Shown here: one piece after another, positions 1,226 to 11,101 of the stretch
Layout: each line of letters opens with the position of its first letter
Numbering within the stretch: position 1 is the first letter of the stretch
Source of the DNA: a phage
Reading direction: 5' to 3' (one strand)
Sequence record: PZ049719.1
DNA: 11,386 bases
Made by a program: the position numbers and the translations under genes
The notes under the pieces: generated by a model
What the model was told of the DNA's origin: nothing
The model's input: the letters and a program-made list of their open reading frames with translations, nothing else
Database searches by the model: none

Positions 1226-1241
1226 ATTACGAATTTGTAAT
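1226..1241. promoter_or_regulatory. Palindromic box ATTACGAATTTGTAAT (ATTAC-N6-GTAAT) in the czcC/porin divergent intergenic region; candidate response-regulator operator
   Basis: Read directly from the sequence; half-sites are reverse complements. It lies 132 bp upstream of the czcC-like start and 159 bp upstream of the porin ATG. The GTAAT half-site resembles boxes reported for CopR/CusR-type OmpR-family regulators, but that comparison is from memory. Confidence 0.4.
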
Positions 1242-1399: not shown

Positions 1400-2722
1400 A
1401 TGAGCAAAAAGGCCGCCCTTTCACTGACAGCTCTTTCATTGGCACTGGGCGGCGCCTCGGTCTTTGCCCAGTCGGAAACAGCAGCGGAGGGCTTCATCGA
1501 AGGCAGCACGCTATCGCTGATCAATCGCAACTTTTATTTCAATCGAGATTTCCGCGACGGTGAGAACGCAACCGGCAATGGCTACTCTGAGGAATGGGCT
1601 CAAGGGCTGATGGCCTTCTTCGAGTCCGGATATACCCAAGGCTCGGTGGGGATCGGCGTCGACGCCTTCGCCATGCTCGGCCTCAAGCTCGATTCTGGAT
1701 CAGGACGTTCCGGTGCTGGCGGAACCGTCGATCTTCTCCCCTACAATAGCGCCGGCGATGCCGAGGATGACTTTTCTCGAGTAGGGGGGGCCGTGAAAGC
1801 ACGGTTCTTGGGCACCGAGATCAAGGCAGGCGATGTATTTCCCGCTACTCCTGTCGTGCACTTTGGTGACGCACGGCTGCTGCCGGAGTCTTTCAAGGGT
1901 GTCACCGTTGTGAACAACTCGCTGGACGACCTCACCCTCCAGGGCGGCCGCCTGCACGCGATGAGCCAGCCCAATACCAGCAACACGAACGATGACTTCG
2001 TCACGTTTTATGGCGGCGGCGTCGACTCGCCTTGGCTCGGCTACGCAGGCGGCGACTATAGCGTGAACGAAAACCTCAGTCTTAGCCTGTATACCAGCCG
2101 GCTGAAGGATGCCTGGGATCAACATTATTTCGGTGTCTCGGCCACCTATCCACTTTCCGATGCCGTCGTGCTGCTGGGCAGCTTCAACTACTACAAGGCA
2201 ACCGACGAAGGTCGGAAATTGCTGGGCGAGTTTAACAACAGCATCTGGAGTTCCAGTCTGGGTGTCGCCTTCGGCGCGCACACCGTCACGGCGTCGTATC
2301 AGCGAAACAACGGTAACAACGACTTTGACTACTTGCGCCAAGCGGACTCGATCTACCTGAATAACTCCATCCAGTACAGTGATTTCAACTCACCTAAAGA
2401 GCAGTCCTGGATGCTGCGTTATGACCTGAACATGGCGGGTTACGGCATACCTGGGCTTACGTTCATGACTCGCTACGCCCGCGGCTGGGGCGCCGATTAC
2501 AGCAACGCAAATGAGGTATATATGCGCCAAGACGATAACGGCGCGCCTCTGTCCGGACAGAAGCGCTGGGAACGCGACGTCGAAGCACGCTACGTTGTAC
2601 AGACAGGCTCGTTCAAGGACCTCTCTCTGCGGGTGCGCCAGGCTACAACACGGGCGACTGCTTTCGAGTCCGACCTCAATGAGGTTCGATTCATCGCCGA
2701 GTACCCGCTCTCGATCCTGTGA
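1400..2722 (+). CDS. OprD-family (Occ) outer membrane porin
   Basis: The ORF track extends to a TTG at 1253, but the likely start is the ATG at 1400, preceded by AGGAG at 1388..1392. Product begins MSKKAALSLTALSLALGGASVFA (signal peptide) then EGFIEGSTLSLINRNFYFNRDFRDG..., the characteristic N-terminal signature of OprD/Occ porins. Length about 440 aa fits the family. Confidence 0.85.
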   Translation: MSKKAALSLTALSLALGGASVFAQSETAAEGFIEGSTLSLINRNFYFNRDFRDGENATGNGYSEEWAQGLMAFFESGYTQGSVGIGVDAFAMLGLKLDSGSGRSGAGGTVDLLPYNSAGDAEDDFSRVGGAVKARFLGTEIKAGDVFPATPVVHFGDARLLPESFKGVTVVNNSLDDLTLQGGRLHAMSQPNTSNTNDDFVTFYGGGVDSPWLGYAGGDYSVNENLSLSLYTSRLKDAWDQHYFGVSATYPLSDAVVLLGSFNYYKATDEGRKLLGEFNNSIWSSSLGVAFGAHTVTASYQRNNGNNDFDYLRQADSIYLNNSIQYSDFNSPKEQSWMLRYDLNMAGYGIPGLTFMTRYARGWGADYSNANEVYMRQDDNGAPLSGQKRWERDVEARYVVQTGSFKDLSLRVRQATTRATAFESDLNEVRFIAEYPLSIL

Positions 2723-3038: not shown

Positions 3039-3713
3039 ATGCGCATTCTGGTTGTAGAAGACGAGATTAAAGCTGCGGAATACCTGCAGCAGGGTCTCAT
3101 CGAGTGTGGTTACACGGTCGATTGCGTAAGTGATGGGCTCGATGGATTCCACCTGGCACTGCAGAACGACTATGACATCGTGCTGCTAGACGTGAATCTG
3201 CCAACCATGGACGGGTGGGAGGTGCTCGAACTCATCAGGCGACGTAAGCAGACACGCGTCATCATGCTGACGGCCAATGGCCGCTTAGAGCAAAAGGTCC
3301 GCGGCCTGGAGTCGGGCGCCGACGACTATATGGTCAAGCCGTTCCAGTTCCCCGAGCTGCTCGCTCGTATCCGAACATTGTTGCGGCGAGGCGAGGCGGT
3401 CGCACTCCCGAGCAACCTGCGTGTAGCCGACCTCGAACTCGACCCGGGCCGGCATCGGGCCTACAGGAGCGGTCAGCGTATTGATCTCACCAGCAAAGAA
3501 TTTGCGTTACTGCATCTGCTCATGCGCCGGACTGGCGAGGTTCTGACGCGCACCGAAATAACCGCCCTGGTGTGGGACATCAACTTCGACTGCGATACCA
3601 ATGTGGTGGATGTTGCAATCCGTCGCCTACGGATGAAGGTGGACGAACCCTTTGGCGATCGCCTGATACACACCATTCGCGGTGTCGGCTACGTGCTGGA
3701 GGCGCGGCCTTGA
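3039..3713 (+). CDS. czcR: OmpR/PhoB-family two-component response regulator, heavy-metal type (CzcR/CopR/CusR-like)
   Basis: Translation MRILVVEDEIKAAEYLQQGLIECGYTVDCVSDGLDGFHLALQNDYDIVLLDVNLPTMDGWEVLELIRRRK... contains the receiver domain with the phospho-acceptor Asp in LLDVNLP, followed by a winged-helix output domain (...IRGVGYVLEARP). The ORF track begins at ATG 2982; I prefer ATG 3039 because this family typically starts MRILVVEDE, though neither start has a strong Shine-Dalgarno. The czcR symbol is by context (czcC-like OMF, porin, overlapping kinase). Confidence 0.8.
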   Translation: MRILVVEDEIKAAEYLQQGLIECGYTVDCVSDGLDGFHLALQNDYDIVLLDVNLPTMDGWEVLELIRRRKQTRVIMLTANGRLEQKVRGLESGADDYMVKPFQFPELLARIRTLLRRGEAVALPSNLRVADLELDPGRHRAYRSGQRIDLTSKEFALLHLLMRRTGEVLTRTEITALVWDINFDCDTNVVDVAIRRLRMKVDEPFGDRLIHTIRGVGYVLEARP

Positions 3714-5083
3714 AGCCACTCAGCCTCGCATCGCGTCTCGCGCTTCAAATCACATTGACCGGCGCCGTCTTGGTCGCGCTGTTGATTGCACTGAGCTACT
3801 GGGTACTTGTGCGCCAACTGGAACTGCGCGCCCAGGAGGAAGTGACGGCCAAGCTCTCGCAGATCGATCATGGACTCCTAGAAGACACCAAAGCCCGTAT
3901 GGGCCGCTCCTGGCAACACGCACTGAGCGATACGGTACTCGGCCATGACAACCTTTCGATTACCGTCATCGGCGATAGAGCCAAATCCCCCATTTTTAGT
4001 ATCGGCCGGTTCGCCCATGCGCCGCAGCAGATGGATCTTGTGAACAGAGACGGTGAATACCTAGGCTGGACCACGGAAGACGGCGTGCAGATGCTAACCG
4101 GGCGCAAGCAAATACAGGTCCCGGGACTGGCTCCAATGACGCTTTTACTTACGCAAGATCGCAGTGCCGATCAACTGCTAGTGGCTGCATTCCTGCGCTC
4201 GGCCTTAGTGACTGTGCCGATGCTGCTGATGTTGATCGGGTTGGCTGGATGGCTAGTTGCTAACAACGGTTTGCGACCGCTTCGCAAGTTTCGGGCCTTG
4301 GCGACAAAGGTATCGACGCAGGATCTGTCACCCCGAATCCGCAGCGATCAGCTTCCACTAGAGCTTCAGGAATTGGCGCACAGCCTCAACGTAATGCTTC
4401 ATCGACTCGATGACGGAGTTCAGCAACTGTCACAATTCTCGGACGATGTGGCCCATGAGTTGAAGACTCCCCTAAATAACCTGATAGGCAAGGCGCAGGT
4501 GACATTGGTGCGTGAGCGAAGCAAGGAGCAATATAGGGAAGTGCTCGAATCGTCGGTCGAAGAGCTCGAACGCATGGATCGAATCGTGTCAGACATGCTG
4601 TTTCTCGCCCAGGCCAGCCACGCCAGCCCAGCACTGAAACTCGAACAACTATCCCTGGGAAGTGAGGCGAATCGCGTCTGTGAATACCTCGAAGTCCTCG
4701 CCGAAGAAGCCGGAGTCGCAACGACGGTAACGGGCGATGCCATAGTTCTAGGAAATCGGCTTATGGTCCAACGGGCCATTTCCAACCTGCTATCCAACGC
4801 GTTGCGGCATTCGAATACTGGCAGCACGGTCGAAATTAAGATACTTGAGAAGGACATAGACATCGTCTCGCTGGCTGTCACCAATCATGGCGCGACTATC
4901 GAATCGGATCATCTCCCGCACCTGTTCGACCGCTTTTACCGCGTTAACGGCATACAACCTCGTGGGGCAGGATTGGGGCTAGCTATTGTCCGTTCAGTGA
5001 TGAACCTCCACAAAGGCCACGTGGCCGTCGCCAGCAAAGACGGTCGGACCACATTCGAACTCACCTTTCCTCGGCACGCCTGA
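3710..5083 (+). CDS. czcS: Heavy-metal sensor histidine kinase (CzcS/CusS/CopS-like)
   Basis: Two predicted transmembrane segments flank a periplasmic region. H-box FSDDVAHELKTPLNNL with the His codon at 4454..4456; N-box LLSNALRHS; DRFYRV; G-box GAGLGLAIVRSVMNLHKGHV. The only plausible start is TTG 3710..3712, overlapping the regulator stop (TGA 3711..3713) and preceded by GGAGG at 3698..3702; the first in-frame ATG lies far downstream and would delete the first transmembrane segment. Confidence 0.8.
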   Translation: MKPLSLASRLALQITLTGAVLVALLIALSYWVLVRQLELRAQEEVTAKLSQIDHGLLEDTKARMGRSWQHALSDTVLGHDNLSITVIGDRAKSPIFSIGRFAHAPQQMDLVNRDGEYLGWTTEDGVQMLTGRKQIQVPGLAPMTLLLTQDRSADQLLVAAFLRSALVTVPMLLMLIGLAGWLVANNGLRPLRKFRALATKVSTQDLSPRIRSDQLPLELQELAHSLNVMLHRLDDGVQQLSQFSDDVAHELKTPLNNLIGKAQVTLVRERSKEQYREVLESSVEELERMDRIVSDMLFLAQASHASPALKLEQLSLGSEANRVCEYLEVLAEEAGVATTVTGDAIVLGNRLMVQRAISNLLSNALRHSNTGSTVEIKILEKDIDIVSLAVTNHGATIESDHLPHLFDRFYRVNGIQPRGAGLGLAIVRSVMNLHKGHVAVASKDGRTTFELTFPRHA

Positions 5084-5231
5084 TTCAAAGTGATACGGCT
5101 TGGTACCCACTCCCCATCAGACCAACGCCATACATTAATCTCATAATGCATGCATGGCCTAATCGAGCGTGGGATGGTCTACAAAAACGATGAGTTTAAA
5201 ACAGAGCCGAATCGGCAGAAAGCGATGGTTA

Positions 5232-5247
5232 ATTACTGCTTTGTAAT
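5232..5247. promoter_or_regulatory. Box ATTACTGCTTTGTAAT (perfect ATTAC-N6-GTAAT half-sites) upstream of the small secreted-protein gene
   Basis: Same architecture as the 1226..1241 box; 71 bp upstream of the ATG at 5318. A 6-bp-stem hairpin (5266..5281, TAAGGG-TCAA-CCCTTA) lies between the box and the start codon. Confidence 0.4.
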
Positions 5248-5317
5248 GCGAAGAACATCTTCTGGTAAGGGTCAACCCTTTAATCTAAAGGTATCTACTA
5301 ACCCAAGAGGGTAACAA

Positions 5318-5635
5318 ATGAACCGCCCTGCTAAAGTAATCCTGCCGTTCTTTCTGGCCGCTGCTTCTTCGCTCGCTATGGCTGAAGACGGAGGGGAACT
5401 AACAATGCAGCGCCTTGAGAGTGCGTCAGTAACAAATCCCACCCTTAAAATACTTGTTAAAGAAGGTAAAGTGCTGAGCATAGCACCTGCAGGGACGACC
5501 GGTACGACCGGAATGATTCAGAGTTATAGAACTAACGGCAAAGTTCAAACGTACGAGATGAAGGTTAAGACCCCTGATGGGAAGATCCATACGGTTGAGT
5601 TTTTGAGCGCCCCGGTTGGTATAAACAACGGCTAA
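5318..5635 (+). CDS. Small secreted/periplasmic protein of unknown function (105 aa, signal peptide plus beta-rich mature domain)
   Basis: ATG 5318 preceded by AGAGGG. N-terminus MNRPAKVILPFFLAAASSLAMA is a typical Sec signal peptide with an A-x-A cleavage site. The mature part (...GKVQTYEMKVKTPDGKIHTVEFLSAPVG) is Thr/Gly/Lys-rich, looks beta-stranded and has no Cys/His metal motif. It sits in a visibly A+T-rich segment between the kinase and the MerR gene. Family not recognised; PepSY-like or DUF2790-like are only guesses. Confidence 0.6.
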   Translation: MNRPAKVILPFFLAAASSLAMAEDGGELTMQRLESASVTNPTLKILVKEGKVLSIAPAGTTGTTGMIQSYRTNGKVQTYEMKVKTPDGKIHTVEFLSAPVGINNG

Positions 5636-6064
5636 CAGGCCAGTAAGCCCCAACGCCATTAATTTAATGCACGCGTCCTCGCTAATGCCAGCGAGAATTC
5701 CACAAGCCTCAACTTCCCGCCCATCACTGCAATTAGCCCGCAGTGATACGAGTTGTCGTTCGAGTGACTGCAGAGCGGTTATCTGCGACTTGACTTGAGA
5801 AATGTGTTCATCGAGCAAGGCATTAACGGCCGTACAAGGCTGGCGAGGGTCATCCTGGTAGCGTTGGAGTGCGTGAATCTCTGGAAGTGACAGATTCAGG
5901 ATTCGGCAGCTCCGGATGAAGGCTAGCCGCTCGCCATGCTTCTCGGTGTAGACACGATAGCCGTTCGCCTGGCGATCAGGCGGTGGCAGCAAGCCCTGCT
6001 GCTCATAGAAGCGGATCGTCTGTGTATCAATCCCTATTAGCCTTGCTAATTGACCAATGCGCAT
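5426..6064 (-). CDS. MerR-family metal-responsive transcriptional regulator (CadR/ZntR/PbrR-like) with an aberrant 3' extension
   Basis: N-terminus MRIGQLARLIGIDTQTIRFYEQQGLLPPPDRQANGYRVYT is the MerR helix-turn-helix; a dimerisation helix follows, with Cys at residues 77, 112 and 121 in the pattern of the CadR/PbrR/ZntR metal site. The ORF has no stop until 5426, giving 212 aa against roughly 135-150 aa typical of this group. The last 65-80 codons lie antisense to the small-protein gene and look non-native (...FTFFNKYFKGGICY). The coordinates are those of the open frame; the true functional 3' end is uncertain. Confidence 0.7.
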   Translation of the reverse strand: MRIGQLARLIGIDTQTIRFYEQQGLLPPPDRQANGYRVYTEKHGERLAFIRSCRILNLSLPEIHALQRYQDDPRQPCTAVNALLDEHISQVKSQITALQSLERQLVSLRANCSDGREVEACGILAGISEDACIKLMALGLTGLLAVVYTNRGAQKLNRMDLPIRGLNLHLVRLNFAVSSITLNHSGRTGRPCRCYAQHFTFFNKYFKGGICY

Positions 6065-6092
6065 CGTGTGAATCCTTATCGGCTCTGCATTA

Positions 6093-6123
6093 TTGACCTT
6101 GTAGTAGCTATAGGGCTTTTAAT
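6093..6123 (+). promoter_or_regulatory. MerR-type promoter/operator: -35 TTGACC, 19-bp spacer with imperfect dyad, -10 TTTAAT
   Basis: TTGACC (6093..6098), then the 19-bp spacer TTGTAGTAGCTATAGGGCT, then TTTAAT (6118..6123). An overlong 19-20 bp spacer carrying a dyad is the hallmark of MerR-family activated promoters, and the arms ACCTTGTAG / CTATAGGGC resemble CadR/PbrR-type operators as I recall them. It lies in the divergent region between the MerR gene (start 6064) and the transporter gene (start 6157). Confidence 0.7.
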
Positions 6124-6156
6124 GACCCCATCTTCGATTTCAAGTGGAGCCGTATC

Positions 6157-7047
6157 ATGAGCAAGTCCGATGGTCCCTGCGGCTGCGATGCGACACCAGC
6201 CGCCGATGCCGGTGTGCAAAATCATTCCGATACGACGGGGCAATGGGTCAGTGTTTACGCCGTGCCCAAGATGGATTGTCCATCAGAAGAGCGAATGATC
6301 CGCTTGGCGCTGAATAGTTTGGACGGAATTCGGAAACTGACTTTTGATTTATCGGACCGTCGATTAGACGTCATGCATGACGGGGCCGTTGAGCCCATAA
6401 CTACAAAGCTGGCGGCGTTAGGGCTAGGCGCCACACTTCAGAAAACCGTCACTGCAGACCCGGAGATGATTAAAGCCGTCGAGAATTCGGCGGAATCTAC
6501 ACAGGAGTCCCGTTCCCTACGTTTACTGTTAGGCATCAACGCCTTCATGTTCGTGGTAGAGATGACTGCTGGTCTGGTCGCCAGGTCCGCGGGTCTGATT
6601 GCCGACTCGCTCGACATGTTCGCTGACGCGGCAGTGTACGGCCTAGCCCTTTATGCGGTGGGGCGTAGCGTCAGCCTGCAGGTGCGTGCTGCACACCTTG
6701 CTGGTGTGCTCCAGCTGATTTTGGCTCTCGGCGTGCTCGTAGAGGTATTTAGACGCTTTGTATTCGGCAGCGAGCCCGAGTCGCTGATAATGATGGCCGT
6801 CGCATTCCTGGCATTGCTCGCCAACATGGGTTGTTTGCTGCTGATTTCCAAACACAGGGAAGGCGGGGCCCACATGAAAGCGAGCTGGATATTTTCCGCC
6901 AATGATGTGGTCATCAACGTGGGCGTCATAGTCGCCGGAGCGCTCGTCGCTTGGAGTGGATCCAACTACCCAGACCTGATTATCGGTACTGTTGTGGGAT
7001 TCATCGTTCTCAACGGCGCTCGGCGTATTCTGGCGCTCAAGAGCTGA
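6157..7047 (+). CDS. CDF-like cation efflux membrane protein with N-terminal metal-binding domain; likely target of the adjacent MerR-family regulator
   Basis: ATG 6157 with GGAG 7 nt upstream. The N-terminal ~100 aa are soluble and carry a CGC motif (DGPCGCDATP) and an HMA-like loop VPKMDCPSEERMIRL. Six hydrophobic segments follow, including a CDF-like acidic motif in TM2 (IADSLDMFADAAVYG). The protein ends right after TM6, so it lacks the usual cytoplasmic C-terminal CDF domain. Confidence 0.75.
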   Translation: MSKSDGPCGCDATPAADAGVQNHSDTTGQWVSVYAVPKMDCPSEERMIRLALNSLDGIRKLTFDLSDRRLDVMHDGAVEPITTKLAALGLGATLQKTVTADPEMIKAVENSAESTQESRSLRLLLGINAFMFVVEMTAGLVARSAGLIADSLDMFADAAVYGLALYAVGRSVSLQVRAAHLAGVLQLILALGVLVEVFRRFVFGSEPESLIMMAVAFLALLANMGCLLLISKHREGGAHMKASWIFSANDVVINVGVIVAGALVAWSGSNYPDLIIGTVVGFIVLNGARRILALKS

Positions 7048-7821: not shown

Positions 7822-8478
7822 TCAGTTTTCTGAACTGGATTTCTTCAGAGGTGGCACGAAGAAGATGCGTCTTTGCGGGGGCGCTATCAGGATATCTGTC
7901 GACTTGATGCTTGTGCCTTTTCGACGCCTTGTTTTGCCGTTCTTGTCGACCGCCAGCAGATCACCGGTCGCGACAGCAATGTCGAGTGCCTGCTTTACGC
8001 GAAGCTCGTCAGCCATGGTGTAGTTGGTCAATCCGCTCATCAGACCCAAAAAAGGTTGCCGTTCTACCTCCCATAGGCCCGCTATCCCTAGCAGCCGCCC
8101 ATCGGCACGGGAAATTCGAGTAGGAATAGCCTTGCCTGTTCGCCAGTCGGGCTCATAGATCGCCACCGCAGGGATGATGCAGTGCTGTGCCTTCTTCCAT
8201 GCCTCCCTGAATGACCGCTTGACCGAGGCCGTCTCAGAACGGGCGTTGTAGGTGGACCGTGCCAGCTTTTTGTCGGCCCAGAAGGGCAGGAGCCCAAACA
8301 CTCCCACCTCAGCTTCAAATGGCAACACGGCGTCATCGTACGGGTCGACATTGCGAGGCTTGCGCAGGAACGGCCCGGCATAACCTGGCCACAATTCGAG
8401 CTTCTCCTGAGCGTCGAACTCGACACCAAACTCTTCTTGGAGACGCTCTGGGGTAGGGGCTTCGTAACGACTGCACAT
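7822..8478 (-). CDS. SOS response-associated peptidase (SRAP / YedK / DUF159 family; abasic-site processing protein)
   Basis: Start reassigned to the minus-strand ATG at 8478 (ORF track: 8526) so that the protein begins MCSRYE, placing the family's catalytic Cys at position 2. A GAGAGGTG Shine-Dalgarno lies just upstream. Further family-like motifs are YNARSETA and SFREAWKKAQHCIIPA. Confidence 0.75.
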   Translation of the reverse strand: MCSRYEAPTPERLQEEFGVEFDAQEKLELWPGYAGPFLRKPRNVDPYDDAVLPFEAEVGVFGLLPFWADKKLARSTYNARSETASVKRSFREAWKKAQHCIIPAVAIYEPDWRTGKAIPTRISRADGRLLGIAGLWEVERQPFLGLMSGLTNYTMADELRVKQALDIAVATGDLLAVDKNGKTRRRKGTSIKSTDILIAPPQRRIFFVPPLKKSSSEN

Positions 8479-8628
8479 AACACACCTCTCATTCGTCACT
8501 GTGCTGCTCGGTGTTGCGGCCCGCAACGCCTTGGCGAGTGGGATCTATGATTAGGACAATCTCTCGCGGCACCCCGCTTACTGAGTACATCCTTATACTG
8601 AACGCCTGCCTCCGACGATGGTGAATGC

Positions 8629-9585
8629 ATGTCGATAGATCAGCCCCTCCCTTTCTGGCGCAGAGCAGGAACATTTCTATGGGACTCAGTGCGTGAGGAC
8701 TGTGGGTATCCTGCAACGCTCATGAAGCTGATTAAGAGCCCAGTCAAACTTAATTCGCCCATCCAGGAAACAGCAAAAGGTATTGGCGCAGGAGCGGTTG
8801 TTAGGTGGCACGACTTCGGATCTCTTATTTATGAGCGCGGGATATATCGCGACAAGCTGAATGGATGGACCCACTGCCGCACCTATGGTCGGTATGGCTC
8901 GACTAGCATCGAATGCGCCCCACTATTGCGCGTTGGCAGCGAGATGCAGATCCAACGGTGGCGGTGCGATATCCAACAGGTAGATGGCTTCTCCGCGTCG
9001 AAATCCGAACTCAAGGAGTTCGCCACCATGGATGACATGGTGGTAAGGAACTCACCCGAGATGATCGACGAGATATCTCCGGCGAAGCTGGCGAAGAATC
9101 TGGCCTGGGATGAAATTCGGATCATCAGCCACGTCGATCACGATTATTTCGCCACTTGGGCTTGGGACGGACGCGTCTTTCTGATGAACTCCGGCGGTTC
9201 GCATCACTTCGCAGCTGCCAAGTACATCGCGGCGCGGCTTGAACAGCCGGTTGAGCTGACCGGAACCTATAAGATCTACGGGTTATGTGAGCAGGCTATA
9301 ACAGAACTCAGGCGTGAATACGGCATGTTCGTGTTGTCGCATGAGCCTGATGCTTGGTTGGGGTTCAACGAAGCTATGGCTCGCTTCAAGGCAACGTATT
9401 ATTGGAAGACATTGCCCCGCCCGCACAACCACCAGCGTTGCGCAATTTTTTTACCGCTAAAGGAGAAGCGCTCTGCCATGGTTGCGAGGATTCTCAAGGA
9501 AAACAATTTCCAGGACCTAGGCGCTTACTTGGCTGGCCTAGCTGCCCAGTCACAAGCGGTCATCAACAAAGTCAATCCGCCATAA
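8629..9585 (+). CDS. Hypothetical protein, 318 aa, no family assignable by inspection
   Basis: Long open frame with non-repetitive composition, divergent from the SRAP gene and convergent with the relaxase-like ORF. Contains a His/Asp-rich stretch (IISHVDHDYFATWAWDGRVFLMNSGGSHHF) that could be a metal or catalytic site. The start is uncertain: ATG 8629 has a weak GGTGA upstream, and an alternative ATG lies at 8722. Located in the more A+T-rich islet. Confidence 0.55.
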   Translation: MSIDQPLPFWRRAGTFLWDSVREDCGYPATLMKLIKSPVKLNSPIQETAKGIGAGAVVRWHDFGSLIYERGIYRDKLNGWTHCRTYGRYGSTSIECAPLLRVGSEMQIQRWRCDIQQVDGFSASKSELKEFATMDDMVVRNSPEMIDEISPAKLAKNLAWDEIRIISHVDHDYFATWAWDGRVFLMNSGGSHHFAAAKYIAARLEQPVELTGTYKIYGLCEQAITELRREYGMFVLSHEPDAWLGFNEAMARFKATYYWKTLPRPHNHQRCAIFLPLKEKRSAMVARILKENNFQDLGAYLAGLAAQSQAVINKVNPP

Positions 9586-9625
9586 TTAGGGTAGTCCAGA
9601 CCTCAGCGCAACTATCCAATGATAG

Positions 9626-10870
9626 CTAGTGATCATCCTGACTCTCACAAAGTTTGAGATTGGGATTATCCAGCATCTCAGTTGTGAATACGTCGCCGGG
9701 TTTTTTGAGCATATAACCCTTCAGTGTTTTCGTTTTACGAGGTCCAAAGACTTCGCACGTCCAGATGTTATGTCCGTTGCTCTTCTTAACGTGAAGCTTC
9801 AGCTTTTCGAACGACTTTTGGACCTGCAGCCATGGCTGTCCTTCGCCAGCCCTCGCTGAGAAGAGGGTCGGATGCTCTTGGGCATACCTTCTGAATATTT
9901 CAGGAGTCACCAGAAAAGCCGTGCCGTTGACGGTGTGAACCTTGGCTTTTGCATCATTGATAATGATCTTGTGGGTTCCTACACCCACTTTTAGCCAGTG
10001 CATGAAAAGGTGACCTAGCGTGTCGCCGATCGGGCCAGCGATGGTAGCGGTCGCGGCAGTGTCTGACTGAGCTTCGACCTCGGACGCCGCCGGCATCGCC
10101 GGGGCGGGTACCGAATTGGTCGGCGCGTCACGCATATCCATCAGATCCAGAAGGTAGTCCGTATCATCTACCTCATCGGGTTGCGGTCCATGGTCACTTG
10201 CGGGTTCGTCCCCTTGAGGCTCTGCCGCAACGGCATCGCCGCCCCCGGCAGTAAGGCTGGGCTTTTCCTCCTGCGCTTCGGAAGCTGCGGCAGGGGCTGC
10301 TTCTTCGTTGAGGACTTGCACCGAGCCGCCAAAAGGCTCCGGGCGGTCTTCGCCAGCTGCCCATATGAGTGAAGGTGAAACTCTCAAGAACGTGAATGCG
10401 TTCTTCCATCCCGTAGGGCTCAGGATTTCGGCATCCCAAATAGCTTTGCCAGCAGGATTCGCAACAATCAGGCCGTTATCCTGAAAGACATTGAAGAGAG
10501 TGGAGTTGCGGTCCGGAACACCCTCAATCCCTTGGCTGAGGAGGTGAGCACGCAGCCGATCCGAAACGGTCTTGCTGACCAGCCAGATCGCATCGGCCGT
10601 GATCCAGCCATCGGAAGCGTCTGGCTGATTCAACTTGAGCTCGTTCTTCACCAGGTAGCGCAGCCCATCGAGGAGCTGACGCTGAAGAGTGTTACGCGGT
10701 GCTGCCACAGCTCTGTCTGGATTGCCGCCAAGCTCATGGGCGACCGACGCCTGGTCAGACCTTACAACGATGTCCCCAAGAACCCCAGCGTGCTCAAACT
10801 GGCCAGCCAGTACGTACAGCAAAGCACCCCAGAGCTCTGGATTGGATGAGATCCATCCGATACCATTCAA
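9626..10870 (-). CDS. Hypothetical protein with a long acidic Ala/Pro-rich linker; possibly a 5'-truncated remnant of an ICE-type relaxase (TraI_2_C-like C-terminal region)
   Basis: The frame opens with TTG directly after an in-frame stop at 10871..10873, and the first internal ATG is about 245 codons in, so an intact N-terminus is doubtful. The upstream sequence in the same frame translates to non-protein-like text. A low-complexity segment (about 10000..10300) separates an N-terminal region from a basic C-terminal domain (...WTCEVFGPRKTKTLKGYMLKKPGDVF...). The resemblance to conjugative relaxase C-termini is a recollection, not a search result. Confidence 0.4.
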   Translation of the reverse strand: MNGIGWISSNPELWGALLYVLAGQFEHAGVLGDIVVRSDQASVAHELGGNPDRAVAAPRNTLQRQLLDGLRYLVKNELKLNQPDASDGWITADAIWLVSKTVSDRLRAHLLSQGIEGVPDRNSTLFNVFQDNGLIVANPAGKAIWDAEILSPTGWKNAFTFLRVSPSLIWAAGEDRPEPFGGSVQVLNEEAAPAAASEAQEEKPSLTAGGGDAVAAEPQGDEPASDHGPQPDEVDDTDYLLDLMDMRDAPTNSVPAPAMPAASEVEAQSDTAATATIAGPIGDTLGHLFMHWLKVGVGTHKIIINDAKAKVHTVNGTAFLVTPEIFRRYAQEHPTLFSARAGEGQPWLQVQKSFEKLKLHVKKSNGHNIWTCEVFGPRKTKTLKGYMLKKPGDVFTTEMLDNPNLKLCESQDDH

Positions 10871-11042: not shown

Positions 11043-11101
11043 CGGTAGCTGCCAGTCGTCACCGGCGGCAATCGGCCAAATGCTGCCTCCGGCAGCTACC
11101 G
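11043..11101. repeat. Perfect 11-bp inverted repeat (CGGTAGCTGCC / GGCAGCTACCG) separated by a 37-nt spacer
   Basis: Arms at 11043..11053 and 11091..11101 are exact reverse complements. It sits between the EamA gene stop (11134) and the relaxase-like ORF start (10870), at the edge of the lower-GC islet. No T/U run follows on either strand, so it is not a canonical intrinsic terminator. Confidence 0.5.

Follow-up and report, generated by a model that had tools for sequence, protein, structure and literature searches.

A narrow family of small, putatively periplasmic proteins encoded beside heavy-metal two-component systems: the A+T-rich cassette of sequence record PZ049719.1

Introduction

What is encoded by the small gene that separates a heavy-metal two-component system from a MerR-type regulator/CDF transporter pair, and what could its product contribute to metal homeostasis? 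The question is raised by positions 5084–5680 of an 11,386-nucleotide stretch of phage sequence record PZ049719.1 (the whole stretch is hereafter called the window). The analysis presented here suggests that this segment is a self-contained promoter-plus-gene module, in which a box of the CopR/CusR/CzcR class (5232–5247) and a weak, activator-dependent promoter would drive the synthesis of a 105-residue precursor. After Sec-dependent export and cleavage behind A22, a soluble periplasmic protein of ~83 residues would remain, composed of a disordered, degenerate PtrA-type segment and the small α/β-domain of a narrow Stutzerimonas/Pseudomonas family. The protein is probably a metal-induced (Zn/Cd, possibly Cu) periplasmic accessory factor of the adjacent CzcRS-like system and the czc genes, acting through the binding of a partner rather than through chelation, with the periplasmic domain of the sensor kinase, an efflux component or a porin as candidate partners. 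We infer the induction by the neighbouring regulator, the periplasmic location and the binding of a partner from sequence.

Small periplasmic proteins of metal regulons, PtrA included, have repeatedly been found to be strongly induced, but the mechanism by which they act is obscure. For PtrA, connections have been made to tolerance of copper and zinc, to type III secretion and to resistance against carbapenems. The family described here represents a natural set of variants, in which a common promoter layout and C-terminal domain go together with one of two N-terminal segments, His-rich or PtrA-type, in copper versus czc/cus loci. It offers a tractable system for studying the role of the PtrA-type segment and of island-borne modulators of permeability or sensing.

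The cassette and its promoter

A preliminary description of the window had placed the cassette between the two-component system and the MerR/CDF module, and profile matches identify both flanks as such. Its visible A+T-richness is borne out by calculation, as the GC content of 5084–5680 is 0.469 compared to 0.557 for the whole window. This corresponds to the 0.2nd percentile among all 597-bp windows, the lowest of which starts at 5075 (GC 0.467). The intergenic part has a GC content of 0.432 and the small open reading frame (ORF) one of 0.487, while GC at third codon positions is 0.49 in the small ORF versus 0.56–0.69 in the neighbouring genes. Low GC is a trait of the family, the small genes averaging 0.48–0.50 and their loci 0.565.

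The operator-like box that had been proposed upstream of the gene is a perfect ATTAC-N6-GTAAT, ATTACTGCTTTGTAAT (Table 1). At most one mismatch being allowed, three such boxes occur in the window versus 0.09 expected, and two of them are perfect. The second perfect copy and the copy with one mismatch (1273–1288) share the divergent intergenic region between czcC and the OprD-family porin gene, because of which the porin and/or czcCBA probably belong to the same regulon as the small gene. The published CzcR site reads GAAAC-N6-GTAAT, and the site bound by CusR, CopR and CzcR reads ATTCATnnATGTAAT (PMC13209446, PMC11195947). The box of the small gene has the GTAAT half-site and the 5-N6-5 geometry of these sites, which places it in this regulon by sequence, and the response regulator encoded upstream is the presumed regulator acting on it. 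In Pseudomonas aeruginosa, ptrA is induced by Cu via CopRS and by Zn via CzcRS, and a CzcR peak has been found there by chromatin immunoprecipitation (PMC8531726, PMC13209446).

Relative to the ATG, the box occupies −83 to −86 in practically every locus of subfamily A, to which the window protein belongs, and in most loci of subfamilies B and C (defined below). An alignment of 14 upstream regions, spanning 100% to 35% protein identity, shows that it is kept at this position down to 35% identity. The same alignment contains an invariant GTAAG downstream of the box, which may be a promoter element or a third half-site. The −10-like TTTAAT that follows did not pass a strict σ70 scan, as is expected for an activator-dependent promoter.

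The small gene and the overlapping minus-strand frame

The small ORF (5318..5635, plus strand, 105 amino acids) is preceded by a Shine-Dalgarno sequence with a GAGG core that the aligned upstream regions have in common. Its 3' two-thirds are covered by a minus-strand ORF of 212 amino acids (5426..6064) with a MerR/CadR N-terminus, on which the preliminary description was silent. This frame, reaching across the small ORF from a recognizable regulator start, could be taken to be the true gene and the small ORF to be spurious, an explanation that is extremely improbable for several reasons. The match to the CadR model stops at residue 127, and orthologous cadR genes stop at codon 135, from which the window differs by a single-base TGA to TTA change. 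The cadR genes of loci L004, L006 and L008 end in ...AC(T/I)K-TGA, inside the 24-bp spacer that follows the small gene. Beyond this stop codon the antisense frame stays open merely because it shares the codon register of the small gene, which contains no TTA, CTA or TCA codon in 5429–5635.

The ratio of nonsynonymous to synonymous substitutions (dN/dS), calculated against seven orthologues, points in the same direction. It is 0.08–0.33 for the plus-strand frame versus 0.9–1.6 for the 78-codon cadR extension to 5426, a value that by sequence comparison is unconstrained, and the extension is interrupted by stop codons in two of the seven orthologues. These ratios and stops argue that the small gene is real and that the 212-residue frame is the product of a stop-loss read-through. 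The latter is thereby ruled out as the true gene and should be regarded as a read-through artefact in annotation. Conservation of the ORF, which the preliminary description had left as a point to be checked, is further apparent from its 79 genomic loci. The TTA triplet is common to the window and loci L001, L002, L003 and L042, representing four islands that are 97–99% identical (S. frequens DNSP21, S. nitrititolerans GL14, a Pseudomonadaceae metagenome-assembled genome and S. stutzeri 24a75).

Anatomy of the encoded protein

The precursor was described earlier as having a clean signal peptide, and the N-terminus, MNRPAKVILPFFLAAASSLAMA followed by ED, agrees with this. It comprises a positively charged n-region (MNRPAK), a 16-residue hydrophobic core (VILPFFLAAASSLAMA) and an AxA site with predicted cleavage between AMA and ED, and inspection of the N-terminus revealed no lipobox Cys. 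The absence of Cys/His motifs also holds, the protein having no Cys and H91 as its single His. AlphaFold2 (AF2) models built on two alignments agree on disorder in residues 13–39, a helix at 43–49 and strands at 51–57, 77–84 and 90–97. The mature domain is thus β-rich as proposed, with three strands and one helix, in models with a predicted local distance difference test (pLDDT) of 75–86 in the core and an overall mean of 59–61.

Whether the protein, which the preliminary description could not place, belongs to a known family receives a different answer for its two parts. The N-terminus matches the NCBIfam model NF041599, the 'co-regulatory protein PtrA N-terminal domain' named for PA2808, with 47.1 bits (E 1.6e-12; residues 1–43 on model positions 1–42), and the protein as annotated thereby scores above the curated cutoff of 31 bits. 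The motif of the small protein is AEDGGELTMQRL compared to a consensus of AEGGSERTLxRL. Under the same NCBI rule, close relatives already bear the name 'co-regulatory protein PtrA N-terminal domain-containing protein'. The PtrA link is therefore real by the NCBI rule but weak beyond the signal peptide, on which the NF041599-based name of subfamily A largely rests. The C-terminal domain stays without a family: profile and structure searches gave no Pfam, PDB or fold match, none of 26 family members matched Pfam even at E≤10, and by these searches the domain belongs to no described family.

Of the three placements suggested for the mature protein, none finds support in the C-terminal domain. PepSY (PF03413) was rejected in the absence of a Pfam or NCBIfam match and of any likeness to solved PepSY structures. 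An OB-fold or CusF-like protein was rejected likewise, there being no match to the CusF_Ec hidden Markov model or to an OB-fold structure, and the predicted topology being one helix and three strands. DUF2790 (PF10976) has no Pfam match in the 26 members, and hhalign of the C-domain alone gave a probability of 5% (P 0.0075) restricted to the last hairpin. The full-length comparison to a protein with a PtrA N-terminal segment and DUF2790 gave 89% versus the 5% on the C-domains alone, and the DUF2790 structure 4f98 (PA3229), present in both structure searches, remained at noise level.

A narrow family with exchangeable N-terminal segments

Homology searches retrieved 37–70 proteins, almost all of 97–111 amino acids, the sources being metagenomes and the genomes of Stutzerimonas, Pseudomonas, Halomonas and Marinobacter. 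An identical protein is encoded on 252 contigs, where it is labelled 'hypothetical/uncharacterized' (A0A165PF98_STUST). Exhaustive HMMER searching over 1.84 billion representatives returned only 23 matches at E≤0.001, of which about five are real full-length clusters, which indicates that the family is very narrow. The 79 loci found in a scan of reference genomes often hold several paralogues per island, S. frequens DNSP21 carrying four within 85 kb.

The members fall into three subfamilies that have the C-terminal domain in common and differ in the N-terminal segment. Subfamily A (104–105 amino acids, at least 60% identity to the window protein) has a segment of the AEGGSERTLxRL type, subfamily B (43–48% identity) has M[QR]HDY, and subfamily C (at most 38% identity) has M[RK]HDHT[VI]GDGH, so that the copper-locus paralogues carry MxHDHTxGDGH where the window protein has TMQRLESASVTN. 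Residues L46, G50, V52, Y79, E80, P86, D87, G88, H91, V93 and P99 are invariant or nearly so, and most members end in PVG(I/V)NNG. Relatives within subfamily A score 48–50 bits on NF041599, while members of subfamilies B and C match it in the signal peptide only or not at all.

The gene-neighbourhood comparison that had been recommended places metal sensor kinases, efflux genes or copper-resistance genes beside the family members. Neighbours were counted as genes within 6 kb, loci being included when both flanks extended over 4 kb or more. Subfamily A genes (n=38) are accompanied by a heavy-metal sensor histidine kinase in 95% of cases, a membrane fusion protein in 87%, CusF in 84%, a resistance-nodulation-division transporter in 74%, an outer-membrane factor in 71% and an OprD-family porin in 16%. 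For subfamily B (n=17) the values are 94% for the kinase, 76% for a P1B-ATPase and 71% for a response regulator, and for subfamily C (n=12) they are 100% for both PcoA and PcoB and 83% for a gene encoding a PtrA N-terminal segment with DUF2790. The majority layout of subfamily A is cusCBA-cusF-small gene-(two small ORFs)-kinase, and the window shows the minority, czc-type arrangement. In the cus-type loci the two extra ORFs (L083–L085, 8347–8858; L092, 9349–9800) encode 85 and 56–76 amino acids, the former being annotated as DUF2933 in a plasmid record, and the kinase behind them is apparently an orphan heavy-metal sensor kinase.

The PtrA-type segment also occurs with other C-terminal parts. 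Proteins of 105 amino acids that combine it with DUF2790 (NF041599 64 bits, PF10976 75 bits) are encoded at L090 (13982–14299, minus strand), L065–L072 (~9821–10135) and L060–L064. In pcoAB copper loci, 10 of the 12 genes of subfamily C have such a gene within 6 kb, and DUF2790 therefore appears to be tied to copper islands. In secreted proteins of 119 amino acids a AEGGSDRTLERL module precedes a helical region rich in His and Met (…HMKEHMGMLEEMMSQLHKDHP…HLAWMEKHDK…), and judged by this composition these proteins are likely metal binders. Their genes were seen at L090 (10947–11306, plus strand) and L085 (4736–5095, minus strand) as well as in L009, L012, L030, L035, L039 and L044, several of them lying a few kb away from a gene of subfamily A. 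The mature parts of the DUF2790-type and 119-residue proteins score 35.1 and 31.7 bits on NF041599. A 74-residue secreted metagenomic protein, P0094, contains two copies of AEGGSxR(T/L)L, LAEGGSQRTLEQ and VAEGGSDRLLAW, which suggests that this motif functions as a unit in its own right, irrespective of where the signal peptide is cleaved.

Proposed function

The claim that the protein is a candidate accessory factor of metal homeostasis is strengthened by the conserved box, the 94–95% adjacency to sensor kinases in subfamilies A and B, and the NF041599 match; the function itself is an extrapolation from these. Partner binding is favoured over bulk chelation, since subfamily A has lost the His/Met/Asp cluster that is kept almost without change in subfamily C, the PtrA-type segment taking its place, and since the sole His, H91, is predicted to lie on the more hydrophobic face of the hairpin. 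In this predicted register Y79, M81, H91, V93 and F95 would share that face, with E80 and E94 opposite.

A periplasmic metal-binding or buffering protein, comparable to the metallochaperones CusF and CopC, would instead sequester Zn, Cd or Cu or pass the metal to the CzcCBA/CusCBA pump. The M[RK]HDHTxGDGH motif is strongly conserved in the equivalent segment of the copper-locus paralogues, and most subfamily A genes directly follow cusF in cusCBA-cusF loci. PtrA itself has been described as a periplasmic copper-binding protein involved in copper tolerance (PMC7922089), and the conserved residues E80, D87, H91 and E94 together with the acidic N-terminal segment could provide ligands. However, subfamily A lacks a His/Met cluster and Cys altogether, H91 and E80/E94 would lie on opposite hairpin faces without an obvious site (in models of low confidence), and neither profile nor structure searches found similarity to CusF or other known metal-binding folds. 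We regard metal binding as a plausible but less likely alternative for the window protein.

As a specific form of partner binding, the small protein could also act as a post-translational gate of the OprD-family porin encoded in the same locus, lowering outer-membrane permeability under metal stress. The porin gene heads the same gene row and shares the box, which makes gating attractive for this window. In P. aeruginosa, CzcR binds the oprD and ptrA promoters (PMC13209446), and a 2026 preprint states that PtrA regulates OprD-dependent carbapenem permeability with OprD abundance unchanged. The arrangement is, however, not family-wide, as an OprD-family gene lies within 6 kb in 6 of the 38 subfamily A loci and in none of the subfamily B or C loci, and the PtrA-type segment of the small protein is degenerate. 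Gating of the porin is accordingly judged improbable.

A further reading regards the signal peptide and AEGGSxRTL as a portable periplasmic interaction module, the cargo of which could be the α/β-domain, DUF2790, a His/Met-rich helical domain or, in PtrA, nothing. The window protein, encoded on an integrative element together with an OprD-family porin and a CzcRS system of its own and regulated with them through one and the same box, would then be a PtrA-like post-translational regulator of permeability or sensing in a mobile 'adaptive impermeability' unit, a proposal to which we give little credence at present.

Several observations weigh against the proposal of a partner-binding, PtrA-related accessory protein. 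On NF041599 the signal peptide by itself yields 21.2 bits, about half of the full score, and the mature part by itself 16.4 bits (E 0.007, model positions 21–42), below the cutoff; by these split scores the likeness to PtrA beyond the signal peptide is weak. PA2808 was absent from the matches of the homology searches with the small protein, so that the likeness to PtrA runs via the NF041599 model. The overall pLDDT of the models is low, and the structure searches returned no fold neighbour that would back any mechanism. Finally, the acidic residues of the N-terminal segment (E23, D24, E27 and E34) could, together with E80, D87, H91 and E94, bind Zn or Cd.

Comparison with known proteins

Known small proteins of metal and envelope-stress regulons resemble the window protein in part. 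PtrA (PA2808) of P. aeruginosa is ~63 amino acids long. Like PtrA, the window protein is small and predicted here to be Sec-exported and periplasmic, and its N-terminus scores above the NF041599 cutoff, a likeness that is drawn through the family model. Both genes adjoin a heavy-metal two-component system behind a box of the CopR/CzcR type (PMC8531726, PMC13209446). The ptrA gene shares a transcript with czcE (PA2807) and queF and adjoins copRS (PMC8531726). In contrast, profile scans of the window show porin-response regulator-kinase genes on the upstream side and cadR-CDF on the downstream side, and neither a cupredoxin gene nor queF. PtrA, at its length, moreover lacks the C-terminal α/β-domain of ~60 residues that is present in the 105-residue window protein, and the mature segment of the latter resembles NF041599 weakly. 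With an extra domain and a different operon, the small protein is not a PtrA orthologue.

The proteins combining a PtrA N-terminal segment with DUF2790, such as WP_248492810.1 of Pseudomonas knackmussii and that of L090, share with the window protein the length of 105 amino acids, a signal peptide, an AEGGxDR module, a small β-rich C-domain and the location in the same copper/metal islands, but the C-domains are not demonstrably homologous. The 119-residue proteins (WP_248492807.1) share the N-terminal module and the metal-island location, while their His/Met-rich helical C-terminal part is unrelated to the α/β-domain. CusF and CzcE are likewise small periplasmic proteins of cus/czc regulons, and subfamily A genes are usually found immediately downstream of cusF. 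However, the window protein matches neither CusF_Ec nor a cupredoxin and lacks a Met/His/Trp metal site.

CpxP, ZraP and Spy are small, stress-induced periplasmic proteins encoded beside, and controlled by, systems that they could modulate. The window protein, encoded beside a two-component system, resembles them by analogy only, as there is no sequence or fold similarity and no match to the LTXXQ family of Pfam among the 26 members scanned. The small protein would function in the manner of the PtrA class of periplasmic metal-stress proteins and by sequence resembles it in part of its build; its α/β C-domain falls in none of the described families.

Table 1. Features of the window that bear on the small gene (positions are those of the whole stretch)
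Feature	Position	Strand	Basis or remark
Second perfect ATTAC-N6-GTAAT box, czcC/oprD-family divergent intergenic region	1226..1241	+	Motif scan
OprD-family porin gene, head of the porin-response regulator-kinase row	1400..2722	+	PF03573, E 8e-150
Heavy-metal two-component system (response regulator ~3039–3713, histidine kinase ~3710–5083)	3039..5083	+	TIGR01387 339 bits, TIGR01386 436 bits
Short direct repeat of the cadR 3'-end, CCAACGCCAT...	5122..5136 (partner 5650–5664)	+	10–15 nt, brackets the cassette
Response-regulator box (ATTAC-N6-GTAAT)	5232..5247	+	Exact match, 86 nt upstream of ATG
GTAAG	5265..5269	+	17 nt downstream of the box, invariant in 14/14 aligned upstream regions
−10-like TTTAAT (TATAAT in orthologue L005)	5279..5284	+	A/T-rich block conserved in subfamily A
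Shine-Dalgarno sequence AGAGGG	5306..5311	+	6 nt before ATG
Predicted Sec signal peptide, residues 1–22	5318..5383	+	Sequence; A20 and A22 invariant in the family
Flexible mature N-terminal segment, residues 23–43, EDGGELTMQRLESASVTNPTL	5384..5446	+	Degenerate PtrA-type AEGGSxRTLxRL module; pLDDT <50
C-terminal α/β-domain, residues 44–105, ending PVGINNG, and stop codon	5447..5635	+	AF2 model
cadR stop-loss site, TTA (Leu) in place of the orthologues' TGA	5660..5662	−	Plus strand reads TAA
Native cadR of 134 codons, in convergent orientation to the small gene	5663..6064	−	TIGR02047 CadR-PbrR 192.8 bits, residues 1–127

Neighbouring genes

The gene order of the window is czcC (leftward), then porin-response regulator-kinase and the small gene (rightward), followed by cadR (leftward) and the CDF gene (rightward). 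The 5' end of czcC lies on the minus strand from ~1092, and in the 95%-identical locus L008/L080 czcCBA is divergent. On the downstream flank, profile matches identify a CadR/PbrR-type MerR regulator that is divergent from an HMA-CDF transporter gene. The start of the porin gene (MSKKAALSL...) was derived from the sequence. The program-called starts of the response regulator (ATG 2982) and kinase (GTG 3572) genes are probably too far upstream, since the regulator domain begins with MRILVVEDE (~3039) and the kinase most likely starts at the regulator stop codon; in L080, with which this start was compared, the two genes overlap by 4 nt.

Cassette boundaries and mobile-element setting

Pairwise comparisons resolve the region into three blocks: the czc/two-component block ends at 5103, the small-gene block spans ~5156–5705 and the cadR-CDF block starts at ~5679. 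The cadR-CDF module was found in 414 plasmid records of many genera and is a widely disseminated Cd/Zn resistance unit. The cadR-CDF pair of the window (5679–6194) is ~78% identical to the plasmid module of Enterobacterales, Ralstonia, Acinetobacter, Vibrio and Halomonas.

The cassette is bracketed by a short direct repeat of the cadR 3'-end. A longer upstream copy is seen in locus L004 (7566–7664 versus 8330–8400), amounting to ~55–70 bp in three collinear segments and scoring above 200 of 200 shuffles. Judged from these sequences, the repeat could be the footprint of an insertion at the convergent junction of the kinase gene and cadR, although no empty insertion site at this junction was found among the compared loci. 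L004 also carries a ~1.2-kb insertion inside cadR (~8510–9702). In E. oleovorans (L008/L080, 8451–9596) an element of the IS3 family directly follows the small gene and is in turn followed by lspA, a DUF3703 gene and a second MerR-CDF pair.

The whole region is located on an integrative element. The islands, with several paralogues each, are carried by mobile elements that have spread between species of Stutzerimonas and Pseudomonas. A fragment of a TraI_2 relaxase (9626–10870, minus strand, 414 amino acids) matches only positions 184–324 of the TraI_2 model, in addition to the C-terminal domain. Because the match is partial and full-length relatives have 581–606 amino acids, this relaxase may be N-terminally truncated. 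The S. frequens island (L001) is homologous to the window up to 11078, but the match to S. stutzeri 24a75 (L042) continues to the window end, which suggests an island boundary or a variable junction at 11078.

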